DNA from: Eledone cirrhosa
Lineage: Eukaryota
DNA length: 64,000 nucleotides
Reading direction: 5' to 3'
NCBI GenBank assembly: GCA_964016885.1
Contig: OZ024742.1
Location: 315,456,001-315,520,000 of the forward strand
How positions within the stretch are numbered: position 1 is the stretch's first letter; every line of letters starts with the position of its first letter. The translations under genes were made by a program, and so were the position numbers. Of this stretch, positions 21,130 to 50,995 are shown in pieces. The notes below the pieces were generated by a model, which saw only the letters and a program-made list of their open reading frames with translations, was not told the origin of the DNA and ran no database searches.

Positions 21130-22250
<1,121 letters not shown>

Positions 22251-22261
22251 ATTTATTTTAT

Positions 22262-22465
22262 TATAGAAATGACTTCTACATGACTAGAGCTGTTTTATTT
22301 GTAAAAATTCATCAGGAAAGACTTTCCTGATGATTTCTGATGAATGAAACACTTCTAACTCTGTAGAAGTCATTTCTATAATAAAATGAATATGCCTATA
22401 CTCTATTAACGTATTGAGTACCTTTTTTAACAGTGATTGCTTCCCGATTTACATCGGGATTCTAT
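22262..22465. mobile_element. Fold-back Penelope-like remnant with paired inverted hammerhead motifs
   Basis: Inverted arms centred near 22320. The + arm reads gactttc-CTGATGA-tttctgatgaat-GAAA-cacttctaactctg-TA-gaagtc. Tail carries tattgagtacc; flanked by (TA)n. Confidence 0.65.
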
Positions 22466-27700: not shown

Positions 27701-28460
27701 AACCCAGTTAAGTCCAGTCCATTTGATGAGTGAGAGTGGCTGGTAAGGGTGGGAAACTCTACACTTCAGTTTCACTTATGGGTTGCTGTATCAGGGACAA
27801 TATACTAGCCATAAATGGCAGGTGGCTGGTGATTTCGCGGTGCACTGAGTGACTATACCACTTTTCAGCTATTATTTTTTTACTATTTCATTTATTATTT
27901 CTATAACAGCATACACTATTTTGTTTTGGGTTCCATCTATGAAATGTTCTATTTCATGGGGTCATTATTTACATATAGGATGGCTATCTTTCTACATATA
28001 ATATTTGATAATATTACAACTATTATTATTATTACCTTTAGTAATATCATCATCAAAAACAACAGCATCATCATCATTATCATCATCAAAATTTAAACTA
28101 GCATTTAAAAAAGAAAAAAACATAATGTAAAATGAATCTCAGTTACATCAAATATCTGCATGCATTGAAGTGCACCTTACCACAAGTTTAGCTAAAGCAA
28201 TTTGTGCAACACTGCAAATGAAAACAGTATGTGAGCTTCCAATATATGCTGTGATATGCAATAAATTAATGATTGTACCTGCTATATATCATTCATGCTC
28301 TCACAGAGAATATAATATATATACACACACATATATGTGTATATGTACATATGTACACATATGTACACATATATATGTAATGTATATAATGTGTATATAT
28401 ATATATGTATATATATATATATACATATATATATTATATACATTACATATATATATATAC

Positions 28461-28491
<31 letters not shown>

Positions 28492-28516
28492 CACATTATA
28501 TACATTACATATATAC

Positions 28517-28579
<63 letters not shown>

Positions 28580-28687
28580 CGTATATACATACATATATAT
28601 ATATACACACACATATACTTATAACTCTATATACAGAAATATACATATGTGTATATACACAATAAACTATAATATTTATATATAAAA

Positions 28688-28900
28688 CATAGAAATGACT
28701 CCTACATGACTAGAACAGTTCCATTTATATGAAATCATTGAATCACTGACATCATAGAAATTTCAAATATATAAAACTGTTCTAATGCTGTAGAAATCAT
28801 TTTTATATTAAATAACTTATGTGCCTTCTCTATTTATTGTATTGAGTACTTTATTTAAACATGATCTTTTTCCATTCCATTTAGGAAAACTATTCTTAAT
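28688..28900. mobile_element. Degenerate copy of the same fold-back element
   Basis: atagaaatgactcctacatgactagaacag ... ctgttctaatgctgtagaaatcattttt, followed by tattgagtact; next to (TA)n. Confidence 0.55.
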
Positions 28901-29505: not shown

Positions 29506-32500
29506 CTGAAAATAGATAAATAAATAAATAAATAGATAGATAAATGAATAAAACAAGAAAAATAAATCTTATAAATACCATATATACATTATAAACATAA
29601 ACTCATACATACATTCATACATACATATACCATGGAGGCACATGGCTTAGTGGTTAGAGCATTGGCCTTGCAATCGAAAGGTTGTGAGTTCAATTCTCAG
29701 ACCAGGTGATGTGTTGTTTCCTTGAGCAAGACACTTTATTTCACATTGCTCCAGTTTACTCAGCTGTAGAAACGAGATGATAGGGACTGGGGTCCCTATC
29801 ATTCCACTGCAAAGTGGTCGTGGAGGTGCCACGGCAAAAAAGCACCCAGTACTTGCTGTAAATGAGGTTGGTGTTAGTGCATCCAGCTATAGAAATCAAG
29901 CCAGAATCAGTTCCCGTCCCACCCTTGCAAGCAGGGAAAAAGCGGATGTAAAATGAAATGATGATAATGATGATGATACCACATATACATATAAACATAC
30001 ACTCATATATACATATATATATACCATATATTCAGATAAAGATAAACTCATATATACATATATATATATATAAACCATATATATACCATATATACAGATA
30101 AACAAAAACTCATATATACAAACAACATTCATTCCTCCATCCATGGGCCCTGAATTCCTGATGAAGTTGTAGGGGTGCCATTGTAATGTTTAGTGTGTGT
30201 GGGGCATTAAATTCTTAGGGAGATCATCTCTCTCCAGGTCTGACTAAAGCTGATTTCTTTCAGAAATATTTTTTCATGCCTAGAGTTGCTGAAGCATGGA
30301 ACAAACTACTTGCATTGCTTTCTGAAATTCGCCATCACTACACCTGATATTCCCCCTCCATACTCAAGCAACACATGTAACTGTGTATATATCATGACTC
30401 ATACACTGCTCACTTTCCTGACATCTGTACATTATTCTATGTACTATACATGCACCTTTGATGAGTTGTAGTGCACCTGAGCACTGTACATAATAATTTT
30501 CATTATTTTAAAGAGCGGTGGATTGGCAGTATCGGTAGAGGGTCGGACGCCATGCTTTGCCGCATAAAGTTACTGCCCTTGCCATTCTGAGTTCAAATCC
30601 CGCCGACGTTAAATTTGCCTTTCATCCTTACGAGGTCGATAAAATAAAGTACCAGTAATGCACTGGGTAATTTCTGGCCTTGTGCCAAAAAGTAGAAACA
30701 ATTATTTTAAAGAGAGGTGGAAAAAGAATTGACTACATTACGAAACTGGTATGTTATTTATCAACCTGGACAGGATGATAGACAAAGTTGATCTTGGAGA
30801 GATGTGATTTCAGAGCACAGAGACCTGAAACAAGTTAACAAGTTCTGCAAAGCATTGTATCCAACATTTTAATAACTCTGCCAACTTGCCACCTTATATA
30901 CAAACATATGTTCAAATATATATACATACACAGAGTCTATTTTCTAAAGTCGTTGGTGATAAGGGCATCAAGCTGTAAAAGCCATGGCAAAAACCAATAA
31001 GAAACAAATAGTTGGAAAGTAGAAGAGAGTGTTTAATCTCATCAGAAAAAACTTTTTTTTATCCCAGTGGCTTTAAAAATATACCTAATTCAGCCAATGG
31101 AAATAGAAAAAAAATATTCTCTGTGATTAAAACCCTACAAAATGCTATAGTTATTGTATTACAACCAGTTGTAACCATCATCATCGTCATCATTATCATC
31201 ACCAACATCATTTTCAATCTGTTTTTTTTTTTCATGCTAGCATGGTTTGGACAGGTTATTTATTACAGACTAAGTCATTACTCAATCAGAACTGCTGTCC
31301 TCCTAGTCTGACTGGAGGCAATACCCTGCTTTCAGTTTTTCTACAGGAGGATGCCCTTCCTAATGCCAACCAATTTATATGTGTAGTGAAACAGTTTGAA
31401 AGAAAGCTTACCTTTTTTAAAGGGAGGTCTCTGTGAGTTGTTAATAGTCTGAAAATAGCAATAATTACAATCATCATGATAGGTGTCATAGCCATTAGCC
31501 AACCTATAGCATTGGCCCAGCCAGGGTAGGTATATGTATCATATTTCAGAGGTTTATATTGGATAGCATTGAAGACCATCAAAAGCTGAAAAAAATATAG
31601 AGAAGAAATTTAGTTAAATACAATTTTAGAATTGTTTGTTTTCTGTCAAAACCTAACCCTAACTGTAATTTGTGATGATAACAAAATCACGGAATATTTT
31701 ATTAAGAAAATAGTGCTTTGTTTCAAAGCTACTACAATGTGAAATGGATCGTAAATGTTAAAAATATGATAACAATGACTTTGGTAGCTTTATAGATCCT
31801 TAAATTTCAGGATAAAATCCCTTAATCAAAATTTAATTAATAGAAGAAACTAGTTTCAGAGCTGTATACAGTTGTTAATTTGTTTTTGTAATTTTTTGTT
31901 AATATTTTTATTAATATTTTGGTCTAAGGGCAACACACATTAAAGCAATTAGAGTTACTAGAGATATCTCAGAAAAAAAATAGACATGAAACAATGTACA
32001 CTAATCAGATTAAATAAACTTTGTTGGTACTGTAAAGAATAGATATAATTGTTTCTACTTTTGGCATAAGGCCAGCAATTACCCAGTGCATTACTGGTAC
32101 TTTATTTTATCGACCCCGTAAGGATGAAAGGCAAAGTTAACCTTGGCGGGATTTGAACTCAGAATGGCAAGGGCCATAACTCTATGCGTCAAAGCATGGC
32201 GTCCGACCCTCTACCGATACTGCCAATCCACCGCCCTGTAAAGAATAGATATAATATTAACCCTTTAGCATTTAAACCAGCCATGTCCGGCCAGAATTAT
32301 CTCACGTTTTTCTGTTCAAACTGTCTTTAACTGGCCACTCATAGCGACGTTAAGATATTGTTCTCAAAATAAATTATGTCAAGATTCAATGTTATGTGGG
32401 ATAATTATGTAAGATAATGCCTTTACCATGAAGATACAATAGTAAATATAGAGTAATGTAAATGCTAAAGGGTTAAACAGTGATGATACGATTTCTATAG

Positions 32501-35500
32501 AGGCAAAGAAAAGCATACAAACCATCAATGTGGCTGGTGAGATATATTTCCAGAAGACGGTGAAATATTTATGGAAATTTCGGCTGCGTTGGCCAATCAT
32601 CAGTTCAACTTCAATGATAAACTCCTGAGCCCCTGTAAATGTAAAATCACAACCATGAGTATTGTCCTGATTGTATGATATATATTGGTGTATGTGGATG
32701 TGTTCATGTATGTGAATCTTCTATGTATACATCATCATCGTTTAACGTCCATCTTCCATGCTAGCATTGGTTTGGATGGTAATTTTCCCACTTGACGCAA
32801 GATTGGTTGTCTCGCTCGTATAGGACTGTCTGGCAGGTTTTCTACGGCTGGATGCCCTTTCTAACACCAATCACGTTTACAGTGTGGACTGGAAGGTTTT
32901 TACCGTGTTACCTACATGGCCACATGACATCGTGGACTGCGTGTTTTTTTGTCGTATGTGTGTATTCAGACTCAGGTGTACCAGGTGGCCGGGGATCTGA
33001 AAGATGACGATCCACGTCTGGTCGGGACAAAGCCAGAGGAAACTCTAGTGAAAGTCCATCATCATCATTTTACGTCCGCTTTTCCCTGCTTGCAAGGGTG
33101 GAGCGGGAACTGATTCTGGCTTGATTTCTACAGCTGGATGCCCTTCCTAACACCAACCTCATTTACACTAAGAGCTGGGTGCTTTTTTTTTTCCATGGCG
33201 CCTACATGTTCACTTTACAGTGGAATGATAGGGACCCCAGTCCTATCATATCATTTCTACAGCTGAGTAAACTGGAGCAATGTGAAATAAAGTGTCTTGC
33301 TCAAGGAAACAACACATCACCTGGTCTGAGAATTGAACTCACAACCTTTCGATTGCAAGGCCAATGCTCTAACCACTAAGCCATGTGCTTCCATCATATA
33401 TATATATACACACACACACACACCCTCACACACACATATATGAACAGGATGGGCCTTAAGTCGCGCACCAAAAGCATAAGCTGTTGTGCAAAATGTCAAC
33501 CTTTGGACTTCATCAATACATTAAACTTACAGATGATAGGATGATGAAAATGGTACATTGTTATTTCGATATAATGTTTGTTATTAATACAATACAATGT
33601 ACATGTATACTAAACTGTTTTCATTCATGCACAACTTACACCCCACCCTGTATATTGTTGGTAGGCTTGATATATAGAACAAGTAAACAAGTATTCAAAA
33701 AAAGCTCAATGCATGATGTGTAAATGATTTGAGACAAGAACACAGCAACCGAGTATAAATATTTGATTTCTTTATGAGTACTGTTCCATATGCTTGTTTC
33801 AATGTTAAACAATCTATGACTAGTGTATTTGCATACAAACGTGTGTGTGTGTGTATACAGGCATTTGGGCATGTATATATGACTGGTGCAATTGTAGAAC
33901 ACTATAAAGCTAAATCTACAGATAATTACCATGAACCCATCCAATGAGAATACATTCAATGATAGCCATTAGGAAAACAGCCCAACTGGCTGCATAAGAG
34001 TCCATCAACTGTAGAATATACATGCCACCCTAGAAGAGAAAAGAAGAAAAAATGTCTTTGTAATAAGGTTAAAGATAACATGTACAGGGGTTAATATCAG
34101 ATATTGTTATTAATGTTGAATAACCATCATTATTGGTGGTTTGGTAGTATCGGTAGAGAGTCGGACGCCATGCTTTGCAGCAAAGAGTTACGGCCCTTTA
34201 TGTTCAGAGTTCAAATCCCGCCGAGGTTAACTTTGCCTTTCATCCTTACGGGGTCGATAAAATAGTACCAGTAATACACTGGAATAATTGCTGGCCTTGT
34301 GCTAAAAGTAGAAACAATTATTATTTCTAACCAAAGGGCAGTGTATTGCCAGTATCGGTAGAGCGTCAGACAACATGCTTTGTGACATATAGTTATGTCA
34401 CTTTATGTTCTGAGTTCAAATCCCACTTTGCCTTTCATCCTTATGGGGGTCGTTAAAATAAAACACCAGTAATGCACTGGGGTCAATTTAATAAACTTTC
34501 CTCTCCCACAAAATTGTTGGCCTTGCACCTAAATCAAAAAACCATTATTTCTGATCAAATAATCTAAAGGCTTGGGAAAAAATAGACATAAAAATGGTAA
34601 TGATGATGATAATGACAGTGGTGGTCATAGTGATTGTGATGATATTAATCTAACAAAAGGTTACCTATTTCATGAGTCACAGGGATCCTTAAGAGTAGAA
34701 TGCAATTTCTACTTTCTGTAGCATTAAATAAACAAGAGACAAATCTTCCCTAATCCTCCAAAGAAAATACCTTCACCACTGCCACCACTATGCTAACCCA
34801 TTAACAATCCATTCATATCCAGTTTTTGGTCTTTAGGGTGCTGCGAGGTAGGCAACACCAGGCAATGTCTCACAGCCACTCTCCATGAATTTCTGTCCAT
34901 AGTATTGACATCGGCCAAGTTCCGTTTATACAAATCACTCTTCGCGCACTCCAACCACATCTTCCTTGGTCTGCTGTGATCTCTAGTGCCAGAGATTGCC
35001 AAGTGAGTGATTGAGTTGATGCATGACGTGGCTCGCTGTACATGTCCGTACCAACGGAGATGTTGTGTGCAAAGGACAACAGTGATCTCATCCACACCAG
35101 CTTCTGGTGGAGCACGGTCGAAGGGGCCTCATTTTTCAATTTAACACCACAGATCCACCTAACACCCCTTCCCCCCAAAAATAACCTACCTTCTACCAAA
35201 TCCCTACTGTTACATAAACAGATGATAGAATAAAGTAACCCATACAGAAATATAATCAAAGATTTGGAGCAGATTTCAACTCATTTTGCTTTAACAAAGT
35301 GTAAACCCCAAGAAAGATGGTTGGCTAACATCCATGAGCTGATTATGCTTGGGGATCCAGCCGGATCAGATGGAGACGGTTGCTTCTGACAGGACCCACT
35401 GGAAGGAGTGTTTGAAGACTTTGTCCCCACAACCCTCTTAGGAACAAGTGGGTGAAGAAAAAGAAGATGTAATAAAAGATTAAAACTTATAATTGATTTC

Positions 35501-38500
35501 TAATTTATACATAAGGCCAGCAAATTTGGGTGAAGTGCAAAATAGATTAAATCAAACTCTGTAATTACCAGGTAAATTATTTTATCGACCCCGGAAGGAT
35601 GAAAGGAAAAGTTGACCTTGGCAGGATTTGAACACTGAATGTCAAGTGCCAGAATAAATATCACAATATCACTTTATCCAAAGCTCTATTAATTCTGCCA
35701 AACCACCACCCTTAAAGCTTATAATTAAACACAAAAGCTTAAGAACAGAATAAATCCATTACTTACATCAGTACAAACTGTAAGACCAGATAAGAAACCA
35801 AGTATGCAGACTGTTAAAACAACCCATGTCTTTTTCTGCCGTAAAACTGGATACAGATCCTGTACAGCAGTCATAATAGTTTCCAAGAGAGCAAACTGAA
35901 AAACAGAGTATTAAAGAAATTAAAGAAACATTTACATATATACATATGCAAAATTGAGAATGTGTGTGCGTTTTAAAGTGCAAATGAGAAAAGGAGTGTT
36001 GAAGCCATAAAAACAATGCCAAAAGACAGAACACATGAGGAAGACTTGGTCATCTGACCAGTCTAGTCACAAAATGTGATGTCTAACCCAATGCATAGTC
36101 ATTTAGCAGTGATAGAGATGATATGCTCTCACCTACATCCCCAATTTACTTTCCATATCCAGCCTATGCCTGCATGGAAAGACAGGAATGCCCAACAATA
36201 CATTGCTAGACACCCTGATACAACTCCCTCTCTTCAAGGCCATCTCCATGACCCCAACACTTGCTCTTTGACTGTGGGATGACCTTCTTCCTTGGCAAGT
36301 AATATGTAACACCCCGCTCTTATTTTATACCTACATTCTCATCACTGCCTCCTCAGCCTTGGCCAAGGACACAACAAGCATCCTAATGATGTAACGAGGT
36401 AGTTCTGGTGCCATGATAAAATGCACTCAATCTATTCTGTAAAGTGGTAGTGCAGGTGTCTTGATAAAAAACACCTTGCCTACTCTGTTACCATAAAATG
36501 TACACAGCCTACTCTGTAAAGTGATATTGCTAGTACCATGACAAAACAGACGCAGACTACTCTGTAAAGTGATATTGCTGGTATTATGACAAAATATACC
36601 CGGACTATTTTATAATGATGTAGTACTAGTACCACAATAAAATACACCCAATCCACACTATAAGGTTGTAATGTTGATGCCTCAACAAAAAGCACCCAGT
36701 TTAATACTAAAAGAAATTGTTATGAAATTTAATTTAAAAAACATCCTTTTAAATTAATGAAATGTATTGTGACAAAACATATTTCTAAATAACATAATAA
36801 AAATCTAAGAGAAAATTACTCACTTCACTGCCCATTCCGAGAGTCAACAACATGAAGAAGAAGAGGAAAGACCATAAAGGAGATATAGGTAACCTGGTTA
36901 CAACATCAGGGTACACAATAAATGCTAGACCAGCACCTGGAAAGATTGAAAGTAGAAGTTTGAATAAATGAATAAAGAAAGATGAGATTTCTCCATTGAC
37001 ATGCATGTGTGTGTTAATATCTATGTTTACATGTCTTTGTGTGTTTAAGCATTTTAACCCTTTAGTATTTATATTACTCTGTGTTTACTATTGTATTTTC
37101 ACTGTAAAGGTTTTACTTACATAATTATCTCACATAATATCAAAGCTACAAGATTTTGATGATATTCTTTTGAGAACAATACCTTAACCCTTTAGCATTC
37201 AAACTGGCCGTATCCGGCCAGAATTCTCTCACCTCTTTCTTTTTCAAACTGACCATAACCAGCTGTTCATACTGATGTTAAGGTATGTTATTAAAATAAA
37301 TAATATCAAAATCTCATAGATTCGATATTATGTGAGATAATTAGGTGAGATAATTTATGTATATAAATCCAGCAAAAACCTATCTATTTAATCAGTCATC
37401 AGTGATTCATTGATTATATAAAAGTGAAAACACATAATATATTGCATCAGTATTTTTCTACATCCATATTGTTTAACCCTTTAGCATTTAAACCAGCTGT
37501 ATCCAGCCAGAATTCTCTCACCTCTTTCTGTTTAAACTGGCCATAACCAGCTGCTCATTCTTATGTATTGTTCTCAAAATAAATAATATCAAAATTGCAT
37601 AGATTCGATTTTATGTGAAAATATAATAGTATATATAGAGTAATGTAAATGCTAAAGGGTTTAACCCTTTTGATACTAAACTACCAGAAAAGACCTCTGG
37701 TTCTAAAATACAAAACTGTTTGCCAGAAGTCTTTATATTTATCTAAAACCATCCATCATAATTTTTTGTTAAGTTATGTTTCAAACACCAACTTAATAAT
37801 GGTAAAGTTTGTTATATTATTATACTAAATCCAAACAATTTCTTGGTTGTTTTCAAAATTATTTAATAATTAAAGGCAGTGCCTTTTACTAGGAAGCCAA
37901 CAAAAGAGTGAAATTTTTTGTTGGTTCATGGCCCTGATGGACATGATTTATGCCAACCATACCACACCCATTAGAATCCCATTCTCAAAGATACACAGTG
38001 CTTTCATCTAATACATTAGGTTTTGATAATCTCTTGACCTTTGATCACACAAAATAATACTTATGACAAAAACATGACAATCAACAGAAGTAACAATAAT
38101 AAATGAAGATATACTGACCCTGGTCAACAACTTTATTAACAGGCATATCCAGTTCATTTGCCATGTAACCAATAATGGCAAATATAACAAAACCAGCGAA
38201 AATGCTGGTACAGATGTTGCCAATTGATACAATCAATGCATCTCTGAAGGAAATAAAACAGAAAATGCCATTGTTAAATTCTGAATATTTGATACAGAGA
38301 TAAACAAGATACATTAGGTTTGTATAAGTACACATGCTTATGCACACACACATACACAAAGAAACACATGCAGGGTTGGATTAAGACCTTCAGGGGTCCA
38401 GGACACCTCATGTTTTTTTTTTCTTTTCTTTCTTTTTGGTGTGTGTGTGGGGGGGGGGGGGGGGGGTCTCTCTCATACACAGAAAGTTAGAATACACAGC

Positions 38501-41500
38501 AAACCTCCCCAATTTCACATATCAAAGTATCAAAGTTAGCTTGGAGCAAGTAATTAGAATTGAAAATGAATACTTGCTTCAAGTATTAAATTTAAAAATT
38601 TTAACTATCCTAAAATAAAAAACCCAGCTGAAAGCACATTGCTGATCGGGCCTCCACTTCAGAGGGCCTGAAACAATTGCAACCTTCCCCCCCCCCCTTA
38701 CATCTGCAACTACACACACATATACAAAACTCAAACCTATTCATAAACACAAACACATATTGAAACACACATACACAACACAAGGTAACTAATACACACC
38801 TTAGTATATAAAACCAATCAGGTTTGTATAAGCACATGTAAATACACACACACACACAATTCACTGAAATGATAACTGACACATACATATGTGCATGCAT
38901 ATATATACTAGATATACAATTATTTATGTACATGTATATGTGTGTACCTATGAAAAGTCATGAATTTGTGAAGAAAGACCAACACTTATAAATGGATATC
39001 TACAGTCATGCGTCTTCACAAAATACTTAGGTCTCACCAAGATATGAACTCGGATCACTGGATTCAAAGTTCAGAGTGTTAACCATTACACATACGGTAG
39101 TATACTTACTTATAACAGTTATTATGGAACTTGTTATAACTGGCAAGTGTTATCAGTCCACCCCAGGCTGGACTGAGTGAGAAAAATATTTGCACGGCTG
39201 CTTCTTTCCATACCTGTAATGCATAAAAAGTATATAATAGTTAAAAATGGTGTAACAGCATATTGTTTGGACTACAATACCAAAATCATTTACTTCATCC
39301 TTTCTTCTAACTTACTCCCCACAATAATACAACAATAACCCTTTAGCATTTAAACCGGCCGTATCCAGTCAGAATTCTCTCACCTTTTTCTGTTCAAACC
39401 AGCCATAACCGGCTGCTCATACTGTTGTTAAGGTATAGTTCTCAAAATGAATAATATCAAAATCTCGTACATTCTATATTATGTGAGATAAAGTGTTTAC
39501 CGTGAAAATACAATAGTAAATATAGAGTAACATAAATGCTAAAGATTTAAGGCCATTCCCTAGCTAAACCAGAGTTGGCCTCGAGGACACCATAACAAGC
39601 TTCTCTATTTTGCTCTTTACTTTAACCCCCCCCCACCTCCAAATTCAAAATAATAAGGCTCATCCCTCAGTCGTAATAAAGAATATATACATACATATAC
39701 TGTAGCCAAATGTGAATCATATATGCAAGGTTATACATTTGTGAAAATGCTAGAAATATAGGAAATGAAATTAAACTGACCTTGGCAGATTTTAATAAGT
39801 GGAACTCTGGCGTGACATAAAATATAATTCCTTCCAATGAACCAGGTAACGTCACACCACGGACAAACAAGATACAAAGTACAACATATGGGAACAATGC
39901 AGTAAAATACACCACCTGTGAAAGGAATTTAAAATAAAGATGATTTTCTTTTTTGTGTTATATGGCTATATATTCTGTATTATTTCAACAATAGAGCAAT
40001 TATTATTTTTATCAATTTGGCCCACATCATAATCATCTGTGCTGACTGGAAGACATAAAGGAAGTAAAGAAAGAAAGGATATAAAACAAAGAATTAAAAA
40101 TGATGAAGGAAAACAACAAGCATCTTAAGGATCCGATGATAAGCTTCTCCAATTTACCCTATTTTCTGCATTCTACCTCACCAAACTTCTGGCTTTCATT
40201 TCCTCATTTATCAATTTTAGCCATGTACTTCTTGGTCTTCACCTTCCTCTATTTCCTTCCACTTCACTCATCCTTCCTCAACACATGACCTAGTCATCTC
40301 ATTCCATTTATCATATAACATACATCACTATTTTTATTCCCATTATCCTTTACAATTCATTGTTTATCTACATCTCTCTGAACAATACTCCACTCATCCA
40401 CCAAACCATTTTCATTTCCATTCTTTCCATCCTTCTCTGCTGCTCCACATTCATCACCCATACCTTGCTCCCATAAAACATTACACTTCTCACACATGCA
40501 GCATATATATTCCCCCTCAGTTCCAGTGACAATTCCCTCTTAATTAGCACATCACTCAATTCCTGAACTTTTTCCCAGTGTGTATCACTCTAGTCACCAA
40601 TGCCAAGGTCCAAGTCACCTTCGTGTCTCCTAGGTACAAAACATTTTCTAAGAAAGAAAAATATATAAAAAAGACAGCAAGAAAAGTAGGAAGAAAAAGA
40701 AGAATTATATACACAGGGTGTTTAAAAAAAAAATTGGATATTATTTCAGGTGTAAATATCCCAGAAACTACCAAGTTTTAGTCAATGAGACTAAGCCAGC
40801 TTAATGTTGAGCAACATAAGATTTATTCCTCAAATTTTGTCAACATTATGACACTAATTCACAATATATATATAGTGGTAGTTTCTGGGGTATTTACATC
40901 TCAAATTATATCTAATTTTTTAAAACATTCTGTATATAAATAAAATGCAACACAAAAATAGTGAACCCAACTTACTTTTCCAGTTGATTTCACTCCTTTA
41001 CTGAGAGATAAAAATGTCAAAGTCCACGCACCGAAAAGAGACAGGACAACTCGCCATCTGATATCACCTAAGTGTTCAATACCAGAAGATATGTTTAAGA
41101 CATGGCGCCTGCAATTGCAATGTTAAGCATTAATAGTAAACATTCTCTATGTATATATGTATGTGGGTTGAATGGGTATGCATATGGAGTTTTTTAAACA
41201 GCAGAGAAATAAATAAAGTTAAACAGTGAGAGACAGAAGTATCTTGATTACATAGATTTTATTTATAGTACACCATATCTCTGCATGTCATCAAAGGCAA
41301 TTAAAAGGGTTGGCACCAGGAAGGGCATATAGATAAAAACATTGTCCCAAAAAGGACCTCATGATGAGTATGACATCTATCATGGGGCCTACAAAGCTAA
41401 CCTCTGCTTTATCAAGAAAAATGATCCTAAAACACTTCATGTTGTATAGTTCAATGAATAGCATGCACCCAACAAATCTTAATACACTACAAAACCCCAT

Positions 41501-42956
41501 AATCCTGTAACCCTCTCAAATGGAAACTCAAATTAGATGACAAATTGGCAGAGTTATTAGAGCAAAAGACAGAATGCCTTATGAATATCTGTCTGGCTCT
41601 TTGTTTATTCTTTTCACTGAGCAGTACTGAATGAAGGGGCAGTGCCCATGGTCTTCACATGCCCGCTAAGACAAGATAAATCAATCACATTGATGTTCTG
41701 TTTAAATTGTTACAGGGTTTCACATTTGAGGAAGACATGAGTAGGAATGAAGTTCCAGAAGGCCAAGGTTCTGAGAAGGAAGGACTGGGTATAGTGGTTA
41801 GTGCAGGGCTTACAGCTGGGAGACATGACATGGGTAATGGAAGGAGGAAAAGTGACTAAATTGGGAGAGCCTTATTAATGGCATAACTTCAGCAAGCCCT
41901 AAAGAGCAAAAACCATTGTAGTAACAATAGAAGGAGCAGGGGAAGGAGTCAATACATTTGAAGAGCGGAAGCTGGAGAATGTTTGGAATTTATGCCTGAA
42001 AACCTTGGTAAGTTGGTGTGAATGTGATTGGAGGAAAGAGCTGAAAAAGGAAAGAATTGAAAAAGGAATTTGTTAGAACTTGCTATACTTACTCGAAAAA
42101 GTCTTGCGCTGGAACGTGTCGTATAGATACATTTTTGGCGAGTTCTACTATGTTTTCTGATGCAGCGTACGTTGCATTATAGCATGTTTGATTGTAAAAT
42201 ACACTGCCATTAATTTTGGTACAAGCGTCTGCGTCTTTGTAAGAATAGCAGTCTGAGACAGAGAGAGATAGAGAAAATAATAATAACAGTAATGATTTCT
42301 GATTTAGACACAAAGCCAACAAGTTGGGGGAAAAGGAAAGTCGATTAAATCAACTCCAGTGCATTACTGGTACTTTATTTATCGACCCCGTAAGGATGAA
42401 AGGCAAAGCTAACCTTGGTGAGATTTGAACTCAGAACGTTAGGGCCCATCACTCTATGCCACTAAGCATACTCTACCAATTGACTAATGACAGAATGAGA
42501 GAGGACTGTCAGTGCTTCGTTCATTTTGCCATTGTCTTTTGCCCATATCTTTTATTTATTTTGTATGATTTAAGCCACCTAGGACTTTTTTTTTTTTTTT
42601 ATTTATATACAGTTTACCCTCGACATTCGCAGTTCCAGTTATTCGTGGGATTTTCCTTAGAACCTAACTAATAATTGTTTGTGGAATTCACTGTATATTC
42701 GCAGAATCATAAATATCTACTGCAATATTTTTATGGCTTTCTTCGTGACAATATACATTTTTTAATGCTAAATTATTAATAACAATTTACCATATTTGCC
42801 GGCCTATTGCACGCACCTTTTTTTAAATTTTTTTTTTATTTTTATTATATTTTGACATTTATAGGCATTTTTGTGGACCACATCAAATATTCGCAGTTTT
42901 GTACTCTTAGCAAGTACTCTAGGAATGTAACCTCTACAAATACCGGGGGACAAGTG

Positions 42957-42990
<34 letters not shown>

Positions 42991-45900
42991 CATGTGTATG
43001 AAAGATTCTTTCACTTACATTGTGTTTTCCATTCATCTCCACAAGTTTCCCAAGGTAGTTCCGATGTAAAAGACATAAACAGGTACAGAATAGTCCAGGC
43101 TATGATTACTGTGTAATAGACAGCTACTAGACTTGATACACATATCATGGCAATACCAAGACCTAGGCAATAGGAACAGTAGTAGTGGTGGTGGTGGTGG
43201 TGGTGGTGGTGGTGGTGGTAATGGTGGTGGTGATAGTGGTGGTAATGGTGGTGGTGGTAGTAGCAGTGGTAGTGGTGGTGGTGGTGGTAAGGATGTTGGT
43301 GATAGTGGTGGTAATGGTGGTGGTGGTAATGGTGGTAGTAGTAGTGGTGGTGGTGGTAGTAGTGGTGGTGGTGGTGGTGGTGGTGGTGGTGGTAAGGATG
43401 TTGGTGATAGTGGTGGTAATGGTGGTGGCGGTAATGGTGGTAGTAGTAGTGGTGGTGGTGGTAGTAGTGGTGGTGGTGGTGGTAAGGATGTTGGTGATAG
43501 TGGTGGTAATGGTGGTGGTGGTAGTAGTAGTGGTGGTGGTAAGGATGTTGGTGATAGTGGTGGTAATGGTGGTGGTAGTAGTAGTAGTGGTGGTGGTGGT
43601 AAGGATGTTGGTGATAGTGGTGGTAATGGTGGTGGTGGTAGTAGTAGTGGTGGTGGTGGTGGTGGTAAGGATGTGGGTGATAGTGGTGGTAGTAGTGGTG
43701 GTGGTGGTGGTGGTAAAGATGTTGGTGATAGTGGTGGTAATGGTGGTGGTAGTAGTGGTGGTGGTGGTGTGGTTAATGGTAAAGAATATATTTAATATCA
43801 TAGTAGTAACGATGGTGATGTTAATGATGGTGGCAGTGTTTATAATTATCAGTGTTGTGGTGGTAATGGTAGTGGTAGTGATGGCCATGATAGTTGTAGT
43901 TGCCACCACAGTTATGGTCATTGTTGTTAATGTTATTGTTGTTGTGATGTTGGTAGTGGCAGTGGTGGTGGTGGTGGTGGTGGTGGCAGTGGCAGGTAGT
44001 GGTTGTAATGATTGTGAAGACAGTGGTAATGGATGGTGGTGGTTATGGTGGTAGAGGTTATAATTGTTGTCATAATTTGTTTGTGACAAGGGTGTTGGTT
44101 AAAGTTTTTTCAGTTGGGAGGTGGTATTGATGGTGGGTGGAGTTGATTTTAATGTTGGGAACAGAGGTAAATAGGTAGAGAGGGAGAGAGAGAGAGAGAG
44201 AAAGAGAGAGAAAGAATGAATTAATAAAAGAATACAAATAGTAATACTTAATAACAATACAAGAGGTAATCAAAAAGCAGTAATGAGATCTAGATTCAAC
44301 AACACAATAACTAATCTTTTAACCCTTTAACATTTAAACCGGCCATATCTGGCCAGAATTCTCTCACCTCTTTCTGTTCAAACCAGCCGTAACTGGCAAC
44401 TCATACTGACATTAAGATATTGTTCTCAAAATAAATAATATCAAAATCTCGTAGATTCGATATTATGTGAGAATTAAATGTTTACCATGAAAATATAATA
44501 GTAAATATAGAGTAAAGGCCATTCCCTAGCTAAAGCCAGAGTTAGCCTTGAGGACACCATGACAAGCTTCTCTATTTTGCTCTTTACCTTACACACCCTC
44601 CCCCCATACTCAGCAATCCCTTGGCTTTCATTTCCAAGAAACAGAAAGAAGTGTTTTGACCTCCATCATTTTGGACACCAAATATGTCAGTTGTTTGAAC
44701 AACAAACAGCCAGCTCAGGAAATTAAGGCACAAATGGTTGAGCATTCTATAAACATATCTAGTCTTAACATAGTTCTCAGTGATATATGGTGGGACAAGG
44801 TTGGCCTTTTAAATTACAGGTACAACTCATTTTGCCAGCTGTGTTGACTGAAGCAACATGAAATAAAATGTCTTGCTCAAGGAGACAGGGCATCGTTGGG
44901 AATCAAAGTCACAACCTTACAATCATAGGCCAAATACCCTAACCACTAAGCCACAACGTTTCTGGAAAGATAAAACAGTAAACAAGCAGATGCTAACACA
45001 AACAGAAACACACACACACACATCCTATAGAGCATCCAGAGAAAGGTCACTTGAGACTGATATGTATCTTTATCCTCATTATACTTATTCCCATATACAC
45101 CAAACTTATCATACCATCATCATCATAATAACTGCAATAACAGTAACATCTTTATTGTGTAAAATTGTCAAAAGTTAGAATATAAAATGTACTTACCATG
45201 AAATAAAGGACAGAATCGGTCAAAGATGGCAGCTGGACCAAGGGATGCAAATTGACCAAAGGCAAGCTCCATGAACATTAATGGTGTTCCAATTAATATT
45301 AACATCAAAATAAAAGGAAAAAGGAAGGCCCCTAAAGAGAAGATACAGACACAGAATGAGATTGAGAAGAGAGAAAAGGTAAAAGAAAGAGGTGTAATAA
45401 GAAAAAGACTGATGGAAGTGATGATCAAAATGTGTTGTAAGGATTGTAATTTTAAACATTTCATAAAACAAATTATCATGACAAGAGAAGGGGTGAGTTC
45501 TGATATTTCAGCTTTTTTTTTTTTTTTGATAATTTGAAATGAAATGTGAATCAGTTGTGTGGCACCCTGGGCATGTGTCTTTTACTATAGCCTTAGATAG
45601 ACCAATGCAGATCTGCCAACCTCTAAAAACACAAACAGGGAATACCATGAAAAAAAAGTGCCCCAAAACGGAGATTTTACATAATTATTTCTACTTTTGG
45701 CACAGGGCCAGCAAATATCCCAGTGCATTACTGGTACTTCATTTTATCGACTCCGTAAGGATGAAAGGCAAAGTTCGTAAAGGGCCGTAACTCTATGAAG
45801 CAAAGCATGGCGTCCGACCCTCTACCGATACTGCCAATCCACCACCCTTGGGGAGATTTTACATAATCAAAGCTATACCCATTTTCACAAGAGAAGTCAT

Positions 45901-47292
45901 CTCTCACCCACCCTAAAAGTGGGTGGGGGATCTCCCCGTTGGACGGGGAGAGTTGACAGATCTACCAATGTGCTGTGAATGGAATTAGGTAGACAGAAAG
46001 TGCAGAAGTCTGTTGTGTGTGAAAGACCAATGTTAAACGATAAGTATGTGCATGTTCCTACCTATGTTTACATTTGTATTGTTTCTGTATTTATGTCCTG
46101 CAGGTCCAGAAAAAATGGATCACTAAAATAAGTACCAGATATTGCACAACTTAAATGGACCACTTTGGCTGTGTCCAATTTTGTATAATATATAAATAGG
46201 GGTATCATTTAATAATAGATATTGAAATAAGAAAATAAAAATATCTTATTTCACATTCTCTGCTCATATGTATCTATATGTAGCTATTTAACTATATACA
46301 TATTATCATCATCATCATCACTGTCTATTTTTCCAATGCATACATACTAGTCAATGAGAGAGCCCTAAAGCTAACCCTAACTCTAACATCAACCTTAATG
46401 AACTCTCGCTCTATCTATAAAAATAACCCTAACAAACACTAACTTTAAACCTTAAGTGTATATATATGCAATGAATCCAGTGAATCAGACAAGATATTTT
46501 CATTTTCTTATTTGAAGATATATTGTCAAAGATTCCCATAAATATATATAAGCTTTAATATCCGTGTGGAAAAAAATAGATAGTTATTCTTTCTCTAATG
46601 AAAGTCTAAGAAAACTAATCAAAATAATTCCAAATTTCCTGCCTGTGAAGAGATACATAAACCTCTGATCTAACCACTTTGCTTACTTTTCACAAGGCTA
46701 AAATAGAATGTTTCTAAAAAAAAAAAATATGAATACCTAACGTTACATTTCACGTGTATAAGCAGATATGTGCATGTTGTTTAGTCCCAGGTCAGTCCTG
46801 AATGAGCAAATCTAAGATCAAAGATCATGCCAGCCACGATCATCTTATCTTTTATTCAGACACATTTATCTATTATCCAATAATTCCTTGAGATTTTTAT
46901 AAAGATAGTAAGTTATGATTTGAGGGAAATTTAGCTGCTGTTTCTAATAATAGTTCGAACGACCAAGAAAGGCTCTTCGTTGGCGAATTGTGTATATACA
47001 TAGCCTATATGTAAATATCAATGCACAATACATATAAAGGGAAATAATAAAAAAGAGATAGAGTGGGAAATAAACTTGAGTCCAAGGGAGATAACTTACC
47101 ACCTCCATTGCTGTATGCTAGGTAGGGAAACCGCCATACGTTGCCGAGTCCAACTGAATAGCCCAATAGGGACATAAGGAAATCGAATCGTCCACTCCAG
47201 TTTCCCCGTTCCACGAGACCATCTCCACCATCATCGTCCAACTGCGTAAGAACTGCACTACTGGAAACATCTTCAGCAAGTGATGACGGCGT
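29368..47292 (-). CDS. SLC6 sodium- and chloride-dependent glycine transporter-like gene (GlyT1/GlyT2, SLC6A9/SLC6A5 group); 14 coding exons, 5' end not found
   Basis: Fourteen GT-AG exons with compatible phases (193+135+144+160+133+135+104+125+113+129+100+110+174+138 = 1893 nt) give one uninterrupted frame. It carries SLC6 motifs [76 protein letters not shown] and WGP. The TM6 W(GG) is typical of GlyTs. Confidence 0.95.
29632..29977 (+). mobile_element. tRNA-derived SINE family B with RTE-like tail
   Basis: A box tggcttagtggttagag, B box gagttcaattc, core ccttgagcaagacact; 3' end matches the RTE tail (acccttgcaagcagggaaaaagcggatgtaaaa...gat). Confidence 0.88.
30250..30505 (+). mobile_element. 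CR1-like LINE 3' end
   Basis: [13 protein letters not shown] followed by 3' UTR ...gttgtagtgcacctgagcactgtac. Confidence 0.7.
30514..30703 (+). mobile_element. tRNA-derived SINE family A (young copy)
   Basis: A box tggcagtatcggtagag, B box gagttcaaatccc, body tttgcctttcatccttac...gtcgataaaataaagtaccag; TSD-like attattttaaagag on both sides. More copies near 6790, 14330, 17600, 18840, 23030, 23750, 24290, 25600, 30720, 34132, 34335, 35490 and 42290. Confidence 0.9.
31412..31585 (-). CDS. SLC6 exon 13 (TM12)
   Basis: ttcag|[58 protein letters not shown]|gtaagc. Confidence 0.93.
32050..32235 (-). mobile_element. SINE family A with 20-bp TSD
   Basis: Direct repeat ctgtaaagaatagatataat at 32030-32049 and 32236-32255. 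Confidence 0.92.
32261..32472 (+). mobile_element. piggyBac-type MITE family 1
   Basis: TTAA-flanked with intact TIRs; 50 bp from the exon 12 donor. Confidence 0.88.
32523..32632 (-). CDS. SLC6 exon 12 (TM11)
   Basis: tacag|(G)[36 protein letters not shown]|gtttgt. Confidence 0.93.
33057..33394 (-). mobile_element. SINE family B, inverted near-identical copy
   Basis: Reverse complement of 29632-29977; a partial copy also lies at 13481-13630. Confidence 0.88.
33930..34029 (-). CDS. SLC6 exon 11 (TM10)
   Basis: tctag|[34 protein letters not shown]|gtaatt. Confidence 0.95.
34795..35160 (-). mobile_element. RTE-like LINE 3' fragment
   Basis: LRWYGHVQR...[10 protein letters not shown]...DRNSWRVAV. 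Confidence 0.8.
35767..35895 (-). CDS. SLC6 exon 10 (TM8 end, TM9)
   Basis: ttcag|[43 protein letters not shown]|gtaagt. Confidence 0.95.
36405..36700. repeat. ~52-bp degenerate tandem repeat
   Basis: About 5-6 copies of aaaatgcacccag...tactctgtaaagtgatattgctagtaccatgac, resembling an internal SINE segment. Confidence 0.6.
36824..36936 (-). CDS. SLC6 exon 9 (EL4, TM8)
   Basis: tccag|(G)[37 protein letters not shown]|gtgagt. Confidence 0.95.
37058..37908. mobile_element. Cluster of nested and tandem TTAA MITEs
   Basis: Family 1 copies at 37058 (-), 37188 (+, starting at an internal TTAA) and 37477-37659 (+), abutted by a family 2 copy (CCCTTTTGATAC) from 37665. Confidence 0.82.
38119..38243 (-). 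CDS. SLC6 exon 8 (TM7)
   Basis: ttcag|[42 protein letters not shown]|gtcagt; TM7 Asn and Ser of the Na1/Cl site retained. Confidence 0.95.
39110..39213 (-). CDS. SLC6 exon 7 (TM6)
   Basis: tacag|[34 protein letters not shown](K)|gtaagt. Confidence 0.95.
39339..39546 (+). mobile_element. piggyBac-type MITE family 1
   Basis: Same TIR and body. Confidence 0.82.
39781..39915 (-). CDS. SLC6 exon 6 (TM5)
   Basis: cacag|[45 protein letters not shown]|gtcagt. Confidence 0.95.
40200..40580 (-). mobile_element. Old RTE-like LINE fragment
   Basis: [17 protein letters not shown]...[11 protein letters not shown]. Confidence 0.75.
40713..40932. mobile_element. Tc1/mariner-type MITE
   Basis: ~60-bp imperfect TIRs cagggtgtttaaaaaa...cccagaaactacca / tggtagtttctgggg...aaacattctg. 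Confidence 0.72.
40976..41108 (-). CDS. SLC6 exon 5 (TM4)
   Basis: tgcag|[44 protein letters not shown]|gtaagt. Confidence 0.95.
41690..42070 (-). mobile_element. CR1/Jockey-like LINE 3' fragment
   Basis: [17 protein letters not shown], the C-terminal motif. Confidence 0.55.
42093..42252 (-). CDS. SLC6 exon 4 (EL2)
   Basis: ctcag|(Y)[52 protein letters not shown](E)|gtaagt; N-glycosylation sequons NGS, NQT, NAT, NVS. Confidence 0.92.
42610..42956. mobile_element. Tigger/pogo-like MITE
   Basis: TA|cagtttaccctcgacattcgcag ... ctacaaataccgggggacaagtg|TA, MER2/Tigger-like termini. Confidence 0.65.
43019..43162 (-). CDS. SLC6 exon 3 (TM3, start of EL2)
   Basis: cctag|(G)[47 protein letters not shown]|gtaagt, 144 nt; absent from the ORF track, read manually. 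Confidence 0.95.
43178..44060. repeat. (GGT)n-based G-rich minisatellite
   Basis: Recurring ~55-110-bp unit ggtaaggatgttggtgatagtggtggtaat(ggt)n(agt)n, decaying after about 43770. Confidence 0.95.
44323..44514 (+). mobile_element. piggyBac-type MITE family 1
   Basis: Same 5' TIR and body, 3' end lost. Confidence 0.8.
45197..45331 (-). CDS. SLC6 exon 2 (TM2)
   Basis: tttag|(G)[45 protein letters not shown]|gtaagt, 135 nt. Confidence 0.95.
45686..45851 (-). mobile_element. SINE family A (internally deleted) with TSD
   Basis: TSD ggagattttacataat at 45670-45685 and 45852-45867. Confidence 0.88.
47100..47292 (-). CDS. SLC6 exon 1 of those found (N-terminus, TM1)
   Basis: ctaacag|[65 protein letters not shown]|gtaagt; acceptor position inferred. 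Confidence 0.9.
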
Positions 47293-49202
47293 CTGTTAGC
47301 GACAATGAAATACAAAATAACACTTAGACAATTCGAAATATATGTAAATATAATTTATCTGAATTTCTGTAATGAGGAATTATTATAAAAACAATTCATT
47401 CTTACTAGTATTCTCCCTTGGTTATTATAATCAAACTATTTTAGATGGTGCACTGGGAGAAAGCCAGAAAGTACAGTGTCCAAAACGTAATTATATTAAA
47501 CTAGGTGACGATACTAAAACGAATAAATCAGCGTGTATGTATATATATATATATAGTAATAATAAATACAAAAACCCAAATCCGAAGAGGGCTCGATGAG
47601 GATTGAATATAAAAAATATATATAGGTCCGTAGAGCAAATATTTATTATTCGTACAGGTTTTAAAGTTTAAACAACGAATTTCTGCTTTCACCCAAAACA
47701 GGATCTTCTGAAACTTTAATCTGTACTAATAATAAATATATATATATATATATAAGTTCTACAACAAAAAGCCACTACAATGTGGTAGAAATATATAAAG
47801 AGCAAACGATGACAAATAAAACAAAACAAAGTAATGTTTCGACCAGTATATTTCAACCCTTACAGGGTGAGCCAGGTGCTACCAATACGACCACCTCATA
47901 GTGTGGGCTGGGTGCGTTTTGTTGTGCATGTTCAAGATGCTATATATGTCGATGTTTTGCACAAGGCATACATAAAATTCGCTAGAGGTTGTAAAAACTC
48001 AGAAAAAAAATAACTGAAGAGGTCAGTTAGTTTTATTCTTTACATTAAATGATGTAGTTTCATGTGGTACAGGACATTAAAAGTTTTGCAGCTTTTTTTT
48101 GTAATTTTTAAAACCGCATACTTTCAGAACTGCACTATTTGGAAATGTGTAAGATGGCATATGGTGTTTATGTTGCATGTAAATAATGTATGTGTGCATA
48201 AAGTTAATGAGAGTGAAAGTTAATATCTGCAGAGGAGCATCTGTTGTTGAAACTGAGAGCAAGTATGTTCTTCATGTAAAGCAGAACTGGAGGGGATGGG
48301 GAAGGATATAAATAAACCTTGGGGTAGACCAGATTTGATAGAAAGAGCTCCATCAGCACATGCTGAAATACTGTAGTCTGAGAAGAAACTACTGAAGCAA
48401 AGGAATTGAAAGAAAGAAGGAAATCACATAACTAGTTTGATTCCTTGTAGCAGCCACCGCTAGCAACATCTTTTTCTGTCTCTAAGGGTCTTCACGTGAT
48501 GTAAGCTATTTTATAGCAACTGACTGTAATAGTAGTTATTTTATTTTATATATATATATGAATAAAGTTAGTCAGTGATCTTCCAACCTTCATTGGTATT
48601 TCATTGTTTTGAAATACCAATGAAGGTTGGAAGATCACTGATGAAGGACTAACTTTATTCATATGTAACCCATTTGCAACCACGCAGCACGTTTGTTTTT
48701 ATATATATATATATATATAATGAAGGAATTGTGGTAAGGAACCAGATGGACCATAATGCACCAAAGTACTCAATACTTAAGGTACTAGAGTGGGTAATAG
48801 GAACAAGTATGACTCCGACGACCGAGCTCAAGCCGTTTCTGGACTAAATAAGAATTTTTAGCCTGGTAAATAAATAGCCGAATTTCTCAGGGGGTATTTC
48901 CTTATATGGGAAGATAGTAATTGTCAAAAGGATTGGTCAAACATTTGTTGTAAAGACTGATGAATCTATCATGGCATTTGGTGGAAGGTAGGGGTGGCTG
49001 AACTTGCATAGAACAAGGAGGCAGTGGGGGAAACCCAGTCAAGCGTTGAAAGTGAAATCTATACAGCAGATTCTAAGGATAGTGTATAAAAGGTCGAAAA
49101 AAGTGTACTGGAGAAGAGGAGGGGGGTGAAAGAATAGGTAAATCGAAAGGGAGTAAAAAAAAAACCATTATAAAAATAAGGAAATAAATATATTAAAAAA
49201 TT

Positions 49203-49444
49203 TAGTTCTTTAGAAGCTATTTTTATATTAAATTTATATATATATATATATATAAATTTAATATAAAAATAGCTTCTAAAGAACTAGAACTGTTTCATTC
49301 AGGAGAAATCATCAGGAAGCCCTGATTTCTCCCGAATAAAACAGTTCTAGTCCTGTAGAAGCTATGATATTTCTATATTAAATATTTATACTCTGCTATG
49401 TATTGAGTACCTTACTTACTGTGGTTACCCTCGATTGAACCCAG
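49203..49444. mobile_element. Third copy of the fold-back hammerhead element, with an extra palindrome
   Basis: Minus strand 49320-49272 reads gcttc-CTGATGA-tttctcctgaat-GAAA-cagttctagttctt-TA-gaagc. An inverted degenerate partner lies at 49321-49362, followed by the tattgagtacc tail. Confidence 0.65.
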
Positions 49445-50777
49445 GTACAACAGATGCCCTTTTCTTAGTGAGGCAACTACAAGAGAGGTTCTTAGAGAAG
49501 AATAAGCAACTATACTTAGCTTTTGTTGACCTAGCGAAGGCCTTTGATAGGATACTCTGATCTGTCATCTGGTGGTCCCTAAGGAAACTAGGTGTAGACG
49601 AATGGCTTGTGAGGACAGTGCAAGCTATGTGCAGGGGGTGCTGTCAGTAAAGTGAGAATGGGAATGGAGTTTAGTGAGGAATTGCAGATACAAGTAGGTG
49701 TACATCAAGGTTCGGTCCTCAGCCCGCTCTTGTTCATTATAGTCCACCAAGCCATAACAGAGGAGTTTAAGACTGGATGCCCATGGGAACTTCTCTATGC
49801 TGATGATCTGGTTCTTATAGCAGAATCAGTAGAGGAGCTAGAGAATAAATTATGGCTATGGAAACAGCAGTTGGAATCAAGAGGCCTGAGAGTGAACATA
49901 GCTAAGACAAAAGTGTTGATAAGTAGAAGAGAGGACAATACTCTGATTCCATCAGGGAAATGGCCATGCTCAATATGTAGGAAAGGAACTTGCATAAATT
50001 CCATAAAATGTACACAATGCAGATCTTGGGTACACAAGAGATGTAGTGGGATAGCAGGCAAACTAACAGGTAGGGAAAACTACATATGCAGTAGATGTAC
50101 AGGGAAAGTTGGCAGTAGTAATCGCTGTGATAGACTCATTTTTCCAATGCAGGTGGGTTCTATAGAAGTGCTTGATAGCTTCCGGTACCTAGGTGATCAG
50201 ATTAGCATGGGAGGGGGTGTTCCGAGGCCATAGTATCTAGAATAAGGATGGGTTGGAAGAAGTTTAGGGAGCTGCTTCCTCTATTAACAAAGAAGGGTAC
50301 AAAAGGACAGTTATATGATGCCTGTGTGAGATGCGTGATACTGCATGGTAGTGAGACATGGGCAGCAACTGTAGAAGATATGCGATAGCTGGAGAGAAAT
50401 GAAGCAAGTATGCTCCGTTGGATGTGCAACGTCAATGTGTGTGAACGACCAAGCATAGATGAGTTGAGAAAGAAACTGGGTATAAGAGGGATAAGTTGTG
50501 GTATGCAGGAGAGAAGGCTGAGATGGTATGGACATGTTATGCGCATGGAGGGTGACCGCTGGGTAAAGTGCCAAGAAATGCCAGTAGAAGGAAGATGCAG
50601 TAGAGGTAGACCAGGAAAAACATGGGCGGAGGTGGTGAGAGAAGACCTCAGATCATTGAAACTCACTGAGGAGATGACGAAGGACTGTGACAAGTGGAGA
50701 GATGCTGTGCTGAATGGGACCCGTCCAACCCTTGCAAGCAGAGAAAGGCGGATATAAAATGATGATGATGATGATGA
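49445..50777 (+). mobile_element. RTE-clade LINE, 5'-truncated and frameshifted
   Basis: GTTDALFLVRQLQE...AFVDLAKAFDR, GVHQGSVLSPLLF, LYADD, PHD-like Cys cluster, RRLRWYGHVMR, RGRPGKTW; 3' tail acccttgcaagc...(GAT)n. Confidence 0.93.
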
Positions 50778-50995
50778 TATATATATATATATAGTTCACT
50801 CAGCTGTAGAAATGAGTTTACCCAGCTATGGGTTAAATAGTCTCACCAACCTGCAATTGGCCAGGCGTGGTAAGTATGGCTACAACCTTACAACCTTGAC
50901 ATGACCAAAACCAAAATAGAAAAATGGTGGAGGTCAATCAGGGAGGGGTTCCTCCGGGAGGAGTGAAAAGGCCCTGGATTGAATATATATATATA

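Follow-up and report, generated by a model that had tools for sequence, protein, structure and literature searches.

Fold-back repeats of Eledone cirrhosa as probable twin-primed ends of a hammerhead-bearing Penelope-like element

Inverted 5′ copies, a tail at one end only and a preference for (TA)n have been described for Penelope-like elements (PLEs; Craig et al., 2021, PMC8557442). The Hydra clade of PLEs, of which Hydra-1_Obim and Penelope-13_HM are members, has features that include RWK, DKT, a CxCX5C linker, CxxC and CxH flanking the conserved E and N, absence of CCHH, and GIY-YIG (PMC8557442). How PLEs come by head-to-head inverted ends with a one-sided tail is debated, both sense and antisense templates having been considered. 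For the head-to-head palindromes of Adineta, an antisense template was argued for and left open by the authors, who called for experiments (PMC3846280). In PAc/Poseidon of Anolis, both target strands are extended, two internal reverse transcriptase (RT) start sites define the tail and uncleaved RNA is the main substrate; as far as the accessible part of that study goes, the later insertion steps are left unvalidated (Frangieh et al., 2024, PMC11167929). Pairs of min-HHRs linked to truncated PLEs lie close together on opposite strands in Schistosoma, with a palindromic loop III and a dimer model (Cervera and De la Pena, 2014, PMC4209133), the latter also covered by a review (PMC6765202); no mechanism for the pairs is given in the portion of PMC4209133 used here.

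Here we describe fold-back repeats found in a 64,000-nt stretch of the Eledone cirrhosa genome (hereafter the window; GCA_964016885.1, contig OZ024742.1, positions 315,456,001–315,520,000, forward strand) and followed through the 3.0-Gb genome, where the family numbers at least about a thousand copies. Throughout, +1 is the first base of stem I of the hammerhead. The Schistosoma pairs lie 100–700 bp apart and have a long helix II with a G10.1-C11.1 pair (PMC4209133), whereas here the arms abut and stem II is 3 bp plus U·U. The two extended target strands and two start sites of PAc have their likely counterpart here, but the PAc ORF starts within the hammerhead and its AC-rich priming site has no homology to the target (PMC11167929), whereas the present ATG lies at about +181 and the arms end in UA-rich sites matching the flanking repeat. 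With L1 (PMC11702581), the family would share second priming from the other DNA end, a microhomology join and an extra G on full-length 5′ ends; L1 twin priming, however, gives an inversion without a long duplication, while here both cDNAs would span the same 5′ segment and yield a palindrome. Non-LTR retrozymes (bioRxiv 10.64898/2026.07.22.740005) are likewise ORF-less, carry a type I hammerhead and originate from PLE pLTRs, but they form head-to-tail tandems, and the head-to-head pairs seen here cannot release a circular monomer. We rejected a retrozyme reading since the family consists of head-to-head pairs with a few one-off mini-tandems, and head-to-tail units with complete hammerheads are not its structure.

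By eye, the hammerhead (gagaaa/ctgaagag...) and N terminus of Hydra-1_Obim, in the form in which they are accessible, differ from ours, and since its published hammerhead is different, the present family is another one. The tail here is about 70 bp, against 30–40 in the Hydra clade, and the motif RWR stands where the clade has RWK. A recent octopus repeat annotation lists Penelope families and, in its accessible portion, mentions neither hammerheads nor Hydra (PMC13282606). In the literature covered, which took in few subscription journals and had Repbase and Dfam outside its scope, we found no description of this family, or of a cap-derived G or the present junction rule in PLEs.

Fold-back elements of the window

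An initial annotation reported three related elements (at 22262, 28688 and 49261), each an inverted duplication with a tail containing TATTGAGTAC and each at a (TA)n tract. All three are present at those places, and (TA)n adjoins the left side of each. The parts are as follows.

21882–22256, no strand: (TA)n tract left of element 1, the likely target
22250–22319, minus strand: inverted short arm of element 1, of the older GACTTTC/GAAGTC subfamily; core decayed, GAAA to AAAA
22320–22371, plus strand: sense hammerhead of element 1; stem I GACTTTC/GAAGTC, core CTGATGA at 22327–22333, U·U, GAAA at 22346–22349
After GTA at 22365, plus strand: predicted cut of this hammerhead; loop III palindrome lost
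22372–22462, plus strand: remainder of the long arm and tail of element 1, with TATTGAGTAC at 22412; then (TA)n
28310–28684, no strand: (TA)n tract left of element 2
28689–28741, minus strand: inverted short arm of element 2; strong decay, core not intact
28752–28890, plus strand: long arm and tail of element 2, with TATTGAGTAC at 28840; CTGATGA lost; right end approximate
49203–49239, plus strand: secondary inverted copy of the outer end of the element 3 short arm; 37 bp, 100% identical, tail to tail around (TA)n
About 49237–49254: (TA)n left of element 3
49256–49322, minus strand: inverted short arm of element 3, with complete stem I and +1 at 49321; stem III broken by substitutions
49322, minus strand: extra G of the element 3 short arm, likely cap-derived
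49321–49445, plus strand: long arm and tail of element 3, from +6 and without the 5′ strand of stem I; TATTGAGTAC at 49401

The elements are mutually similar by BLAST (E 4e-20 to 6e-6); in each, two arms of about 60–70 bp form an inverted pair, with the tail at the right. Arms are about 81% alike in element 1 and about 72% in element 2. On folding, the three hairpins reach z scores of -5.8 to -15.7, with none of 200 dinucleotide shuffles as good; those of elements 1 and 3 have energies of -56 to -73 kcal/mol. Element 3 has no (TA)n on its right side because the copy stops at 49445, where an RT-bearing LINE fragment begins. The 37-bp secondary copy postdates insertion of element 3, since it is 100% identical to the short arm including the private mutations of that arm.

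Only one of the six arms in the window, 22320–22371 on the plus strand, has an intact core with pairable helices; the other five are broken. The long arm of element 3 has lost 3 nt of its core, GAAA has become AAAA and its tail is cut off by the LINE fragment. The earlier observation that one arm keeps GAAA while the other has AAAA in the 22.3- and 49.3-kb copies is correct, and the AAAA variant is decay, G26 being kept in more than 90% of 90 family copies. The window contains no remnant of the parent ORF. The fold-backs here are likely inactive, dead scars.

Several other features lie nearby. Exons of an SNF/SLC6 sodium:neurotransmitter symporter gene occupy about 31286–47185 on the minus strand; element 3 is about 2 kb upstream of the first conserved SLC6 exon found, and elements 1 and 2 are downstream of the last. 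A GTG-rich repeat expansion (43011–43795) adjoins an SLC6 exon, and a partial tRNA-like match of 32 bits (39037–39091, minus strand) is possibly a SINE head or pseudogene. The decayed LINE fragment (49446–50800, plus strand) has RVT_1 and PHD matches, and its 5′ end is joined directly to the element 3 tail; comparable LINE fragments lie near 5.6–6.0 kb and 10.8–11.4 kb. A 9-kb satellite at 51906–60993 consists of about 389 copies of a 24-bp unit with 91% matches and a strong strand skew. An unrelated second fold-back (about 48560–48670, minus strand) has arms of about 50 bp and CTGATGA but lacks a GAAA further downstream. Its neighbour (about 48700–48800, minus strand) is the end of another repeat, which has TATTGAGTAC and sits at (TA)n. 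Since the ends of these two repeats recur at four other loci (L029, L079, L105 and L138), TATTGAGTAC is common to several repeat families.

A Hydra-clade parent and its hammerhead

The initial annotation had thought of Penelope-like elements and proposed a search for linkage to GIY-YIG/RT ORFs. This link exists: the tail reads on into the RT/GIY-YIG ORF of a Hydra-clade PLE. A minority of copies continue past the usual end at +138 into the ORF, whose ATG lies at about +181. Extending the tail in this way with an exact 26-nt pattern gave one place, and a shorter pattern with mismatches succeeded. In five copies, +1 to the stop codon spans about 2.3 kb, with a single ORF for RT plus GIY-YIG at the C terminus in an element of <3 kb.

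The ORF is broken by stops or frameshifts in all 12 longer copies fetched, none of which retains it intact, and was read frame by frame. RWR is present in 10 of the 12 (RIRWR in 9, RISWR in 1), DKT (as DKTK, replacing DKG) in 9, and both CNCxNKxAC, the CxCX5C linker, and CxLC(I) in 10. In the VYKC..YIG motif, YIG is found in 12/12; YRDD/YGDD is readable in several copies. A C-terminal CMH/CKH is seen in several ORF copies, and CCHH is absent as judged by eye and with a crude pattern. A database search with the parent ORF yielded 914 homologues (E≤0.001), of which the best 120 show 38–55% identity; three that were read have the same motifs, with RWK or RWR. Pfam gave a weak GIY-YIG match under the cut-off (E 8e-4) and no RVT_1 match, and a sequence-profile search for a relative of solved structure found none. 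From these motifs, we conclude that the fold-backs are almost certainly ends of a Hydra-clade PLE. A hammerhead in the pLTR, an inverted 5′ copy and a tail at one end are all found in the parent family. The proposed targeting of microsatellites likewise extends beyond the window, (TA)n insertion being seen across family copies.

Within the 7 kb fetched, none of the 12 ORF-bearing copies shows a pLTR on the 3′ side, and the classical pLTR-ORF-pLTR unit was therefore not seen. ORF copies end in a TG/TA tract about 200 bp after the stop, and promoter-bearing solos start in such a tract; the element may therefore be divided at a target-like sequence of its own. At L185–L196 and L091–L120, the parent seems to hold an internal TG/TA tract between the 3′ UTR and the promoter.

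Two sets of candidates for the parent were rejected. The top 30 GIY-YIG loci, from 10,596 first-look candidates genome-wide, belong to other PLE families, and an RT/EN fragment near the tail at L149/L152 lies beyond a (TA)n and is a separate insertion. Other hammerhead families with G10.1-C11.1 lie in the same (TA)n tracts as the present family, for example at L053, L055, L057 and L092.

The consensus arm is a type I hammerhead with a 6-bp stem I, CUGAUGA, a stem II of U·U plus 3 bp, GAAA, and a 4-bp stem III closed by the 8-nt loop UUCUAGUC, with GUA at the predicted cut; the core CUGANGA...GAAA...UH and all three helices are present. With its 4-bp stem III and 8-nt loop, it is not a helix-III-less min-HHR; in that class, as Cervera and De la Pena describe it, helix II is long and helix III tiny or missing, whereas stem II of the present arm has 3 bp. 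The arm consensus of the initial annotation stands as regards the core, which is conserved with compensatory changes in stem I, but not as regards a complete stem I on each arm, since in the dominant junction only one arm has it. A G10.1-C11.1 pair is missing, and U·U takes its place in 180 of 185 arms. Similar U·U variants may already be described in the work of Lunse et al. on small PLE hammerheads. The U·U at the base of stem II had been suspected of making the ribozyme inactive, a suspicion that loses its ground with U·U as the family consensus and with a U before and after stem II in many Hydra-clade hammerheads of Craig's File S2 (PMC8557442); Perreault et al. describe U·U as a tolerated mismatch that occurs naturally (PMC3088659).

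Stem I covaries across subfamilies (GGCTTC/GAAGCC, AGCTTC/GAAGCT, AGATTC/GAATCT and GACTTTC/GAAGTC), while loop II varies freely. Two stem I pairs have changes on both sides among 14 hand-picked arms, and these compensatory pairs reflect a small number of inherited events and not a large number of independent changes. Rfam gave no hammerhead match in the 64,000-nt window or in two loci at E≤10.

For a lone arm, predicted pair probabilities are 0.92–1.0 for stem I, 0.39–0.46 for stem III and a weak 0.07–0.10 for stem II, and two arms can pair through the CUAG loop in a predicted duplex of -12.8 kcal/mol. Within the whole element, every ribozyme helix has a predicted probability of 0.0 on both strands. 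The outward orientation of the arms means that, whichever strand is transcribed, the antisense arm comes ahead of the sense arm. The notion that such elements cut transcripts from either strand is not supported by these predictions. The companion notion of dsRNA fares better, a long hairpin of about 60 bp being predicted to form; in a transcript across a scar, RNA editing or silencing might follow.

Arms, joins and 5′ ends across the family

Exact patterns for the younger subfamily alone match 1,074 arms with a tail and 936 short junctions of the head-to-head type, against 0 for reversed controls. First-look searches gave 2,886 candidates with element 3 as query and 4,407 with element 1, of which 40 each were scored. 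The samples below are exact-pattern matches on contig C1 and are biased towards well-kept copies of one subfamily. Copies with an ORF are far fewer than the ORF-less 200-bp fold-backs and solos; a set of 88 tail-bearing arms, taken in positional order on that contig (90 fetched, 2 duplicates dropped), contains 42 short fold-backs and 31 solos.

The 5′ ends point to a transcription start at +1, which would make the hammerhead the 5′ end of the mRNA. In the set of 88, 72 arms begin within +1 to +12 and 15 reach upstream. Copies that do so carry TATAAATA at -30 to -23, with TATA at -30, and the TATA spacing is 21–22 nt in most promoter-bearing copies, across three subfamilies. At 90 distinct places where (TA)n directly abuts a solo (91 rows less one duplicate), an extra G precedes +1 in 62 and a C in 2; the 28 of 90 counted as lacking the extra G include the latter. 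The parent base at this position is C: promoter-bearing copies have C 14 times, T 4 times and G never at -1 (18 of 30 readable), apart from one such copy with G (L068/L238). Among 36 copies truncated further in, no more than 1 shows an unexplained G on inspection by eye. In L1, the extra G on full-length 5′ ends is read as a copied cap (PMC11702581), and the same reading is likely here, judging from the genomic copies; alternatively, a strong stop at stem I could have led to non-templated C addition. For the parent RNA, the start site, the cap and cleavage are all read from DNA.

The predicted cleavage site at +46 coincides with the 5′ end of a copy exactly in 3 and ambiguously in at most 4 of 36 places, without a clear peak, which would be in line with uncleaved RNA as the main template, as reported for PAc (PMC11167929). 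At L124/L125 and L137, joins resume at +45/+46, a weak hint that cleaved RNA served as template.

Most arms end at +68 or +138, where the sequence is UA-rich and matches the microsatellite alongside (..ATAT before (TA)n, ..TTTCT before (CT)n). The arm end follows the target, since five short arms stop at +57 (..TTTCT) beside (CT)n. Among 48 elements selected by their junction (50 rows less 2 duplicates), 42 pair a long arm (about +138) with a short one (mostly +57 to +73), compared with 24 expected if the arms were independent (p=5e-8). The complete stem I belongs to the long arm 16 times and to the short arm 11 times (p=0.44), and the arm starting at +6 bears the tail in 11 of the 27 long-plus-short elements.

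The dominant join runs from CATCAGGAAGCCC directly into TGATG. In the first 50 of the 936 junctions, 30 joins are of 34 nt, 4 of 33 nt and 16 of neither length. Arms of one element agree in subfamily variant: at A52T, both arms have T in 6 elements and A in 55, with 2 discordant (p=7e-7), and 21 non-consensus bases are common to both arms, compared with 8.6 in permutations, none of 2000 being as high; both arms therefore come from one source, perhaps one RNA. Among the 67 arm pairs are 30 loci selected by query, and one element is represented twice.

Reading 30 of the 233 exact matches with complete stem I and tail gave a continuum of 5′ sides, from direct (TA)n abutment through inversions from many points to up to about 250 bp of shared upstream sequence. 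Mini-tandems also occur, in which one copy begins at +1 or close by, in many cases with the extra G, and adjoins a second copy that is cut at about +170 to +185 (L122, L123, L126, L128, L129, L138, L142, L145, L148 and L151). This cut near the ORF start is a preferred template-jump site.

Probable twin priming and its rivals

How did the fold-backs arise? Each consists of two copies, head to head, of the first 70 and the first 138 bases below the promoter, and we consider it probable that they were made anew at each insertion by twin priming on capped sense RNA. Transcription would start at +1, and the endonuclease would nick both (TA)n strands. One 3′ end would then prime at +138 and the other at about +68, both cDNAs would reach the cap and copy it as an extra C, and the terminal CC of one cDNA would pair with the GG of the other's CAGG and be extended. 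A cDNA ending in ..CAGGAAGCCC with this CC/GG match would give a join of exactly 34 nt; one lacking the cap base would give 33 nt.

Palindrome formation by self-priming with antisense RNA as template, the proposal made for Adineta Penelopes (PMC3846280), or by snap-back of a single cDNA, as known for R2 (PMC11371274), appears unlikely. The CC/GG rule is compatible with an intramolecular hairpin with a 4-nt loop, and the agreement in subfamily variant between arms fits such a hairpin too. A snap-back copy, however, cannot exceed its cDNA, yet the tail is often on the arm that starts at +6. As the copy cannot outgrow its template and the complete stem I may be on either arm, two cDNAs are needed. 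An antisense template is also opposed by the extra G at the sense 5′ end, 30 nt below the sense TATA box. Within the twin-priming reading, the sequence would fit equally one RNA primed twice and two RNAs of one source.

We regard as improbable the view that one or a few non-autonomous master palindromes were amplified in trans as units, a self-propagating form of the non-autonomous family that the initial annotation suggested. The prevalence of one join, the near-constant pairing of long with short and the uniform look of 30 loci fetched for element 3 would suit it, but this uniformity reflects query bias. The junctions also vary, with many one-off joins; both polarities are equally common; the fold-backs grade into solos, mini-tandems and longer inversions; four subfamilies make this structure, with arm variants that match; and the unit has no internal promoter.

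That the fold-backs serve the host, as ribozymes cutting its transcripts on either strand or as regulated dsRNA switches, is very doubtful. Although the hairpins are strong and the three elements lie around a neurotransmitter-transporter gene, arms differ at 231 of 3,522 sites (6.6%) even in well-kept copies of the young subfamily, core damage is scattered, nearly all arms in the window are broken and the ribozyme helices are predicted not to form in context. A DNA-transposon MITE with a chance likeness to a hammerhead is hardly credible: the repeats are short, AT-rich, palindromic and flanked by TA (a TA duplication being unreadable inside (TA)n), but their ends differ (+68 versus +138), so that there are no terminal inverted repeats, stem I covaries and continuity with the RT/GIY-YIG ORF already refutes this reading.

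If twin priming on sense RNA is right, the joins would run against the antisense-template reading for Adineta (PMC3846280) and fit the two start sites of PAc (PMC11167929), as far as the accessible parts of these studies allow the analogy. The fold-back itself would be a dead end, since it has no promoter, no ORF and a ribozyme predicted to be locked in the hairpin. The hammerhead likely works in the parent mRNA and not in the scars, and there it probably acts as a dimer through the CUAG loop. Its place at the first base of the transcript suggests a role in decapping, not in monomer release.

More tentatively, and with somewhat more doubt than confidence in the combination, the scars may be a genome-wide record of a single complex that takes capped sense RNA, primes both target ends at two fixed UA-rich sites shortly below the cap and uses the cap G as joining microhomology, with a hammerhead at the mRNA 5′ end that decaps the RNA to switch it off. 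Repeats of this kind are easily mislabelled as MITEs or active ribozymes. The reading makes a sharp prediction, namely that 34-nt joins would be cap-dependent and 33-nt joins cap-independent. With about a thousand natural replicates at single-base resolution, the family bears on the origin of the head-to-head ends and one-sided tails of Penelope-like elements.
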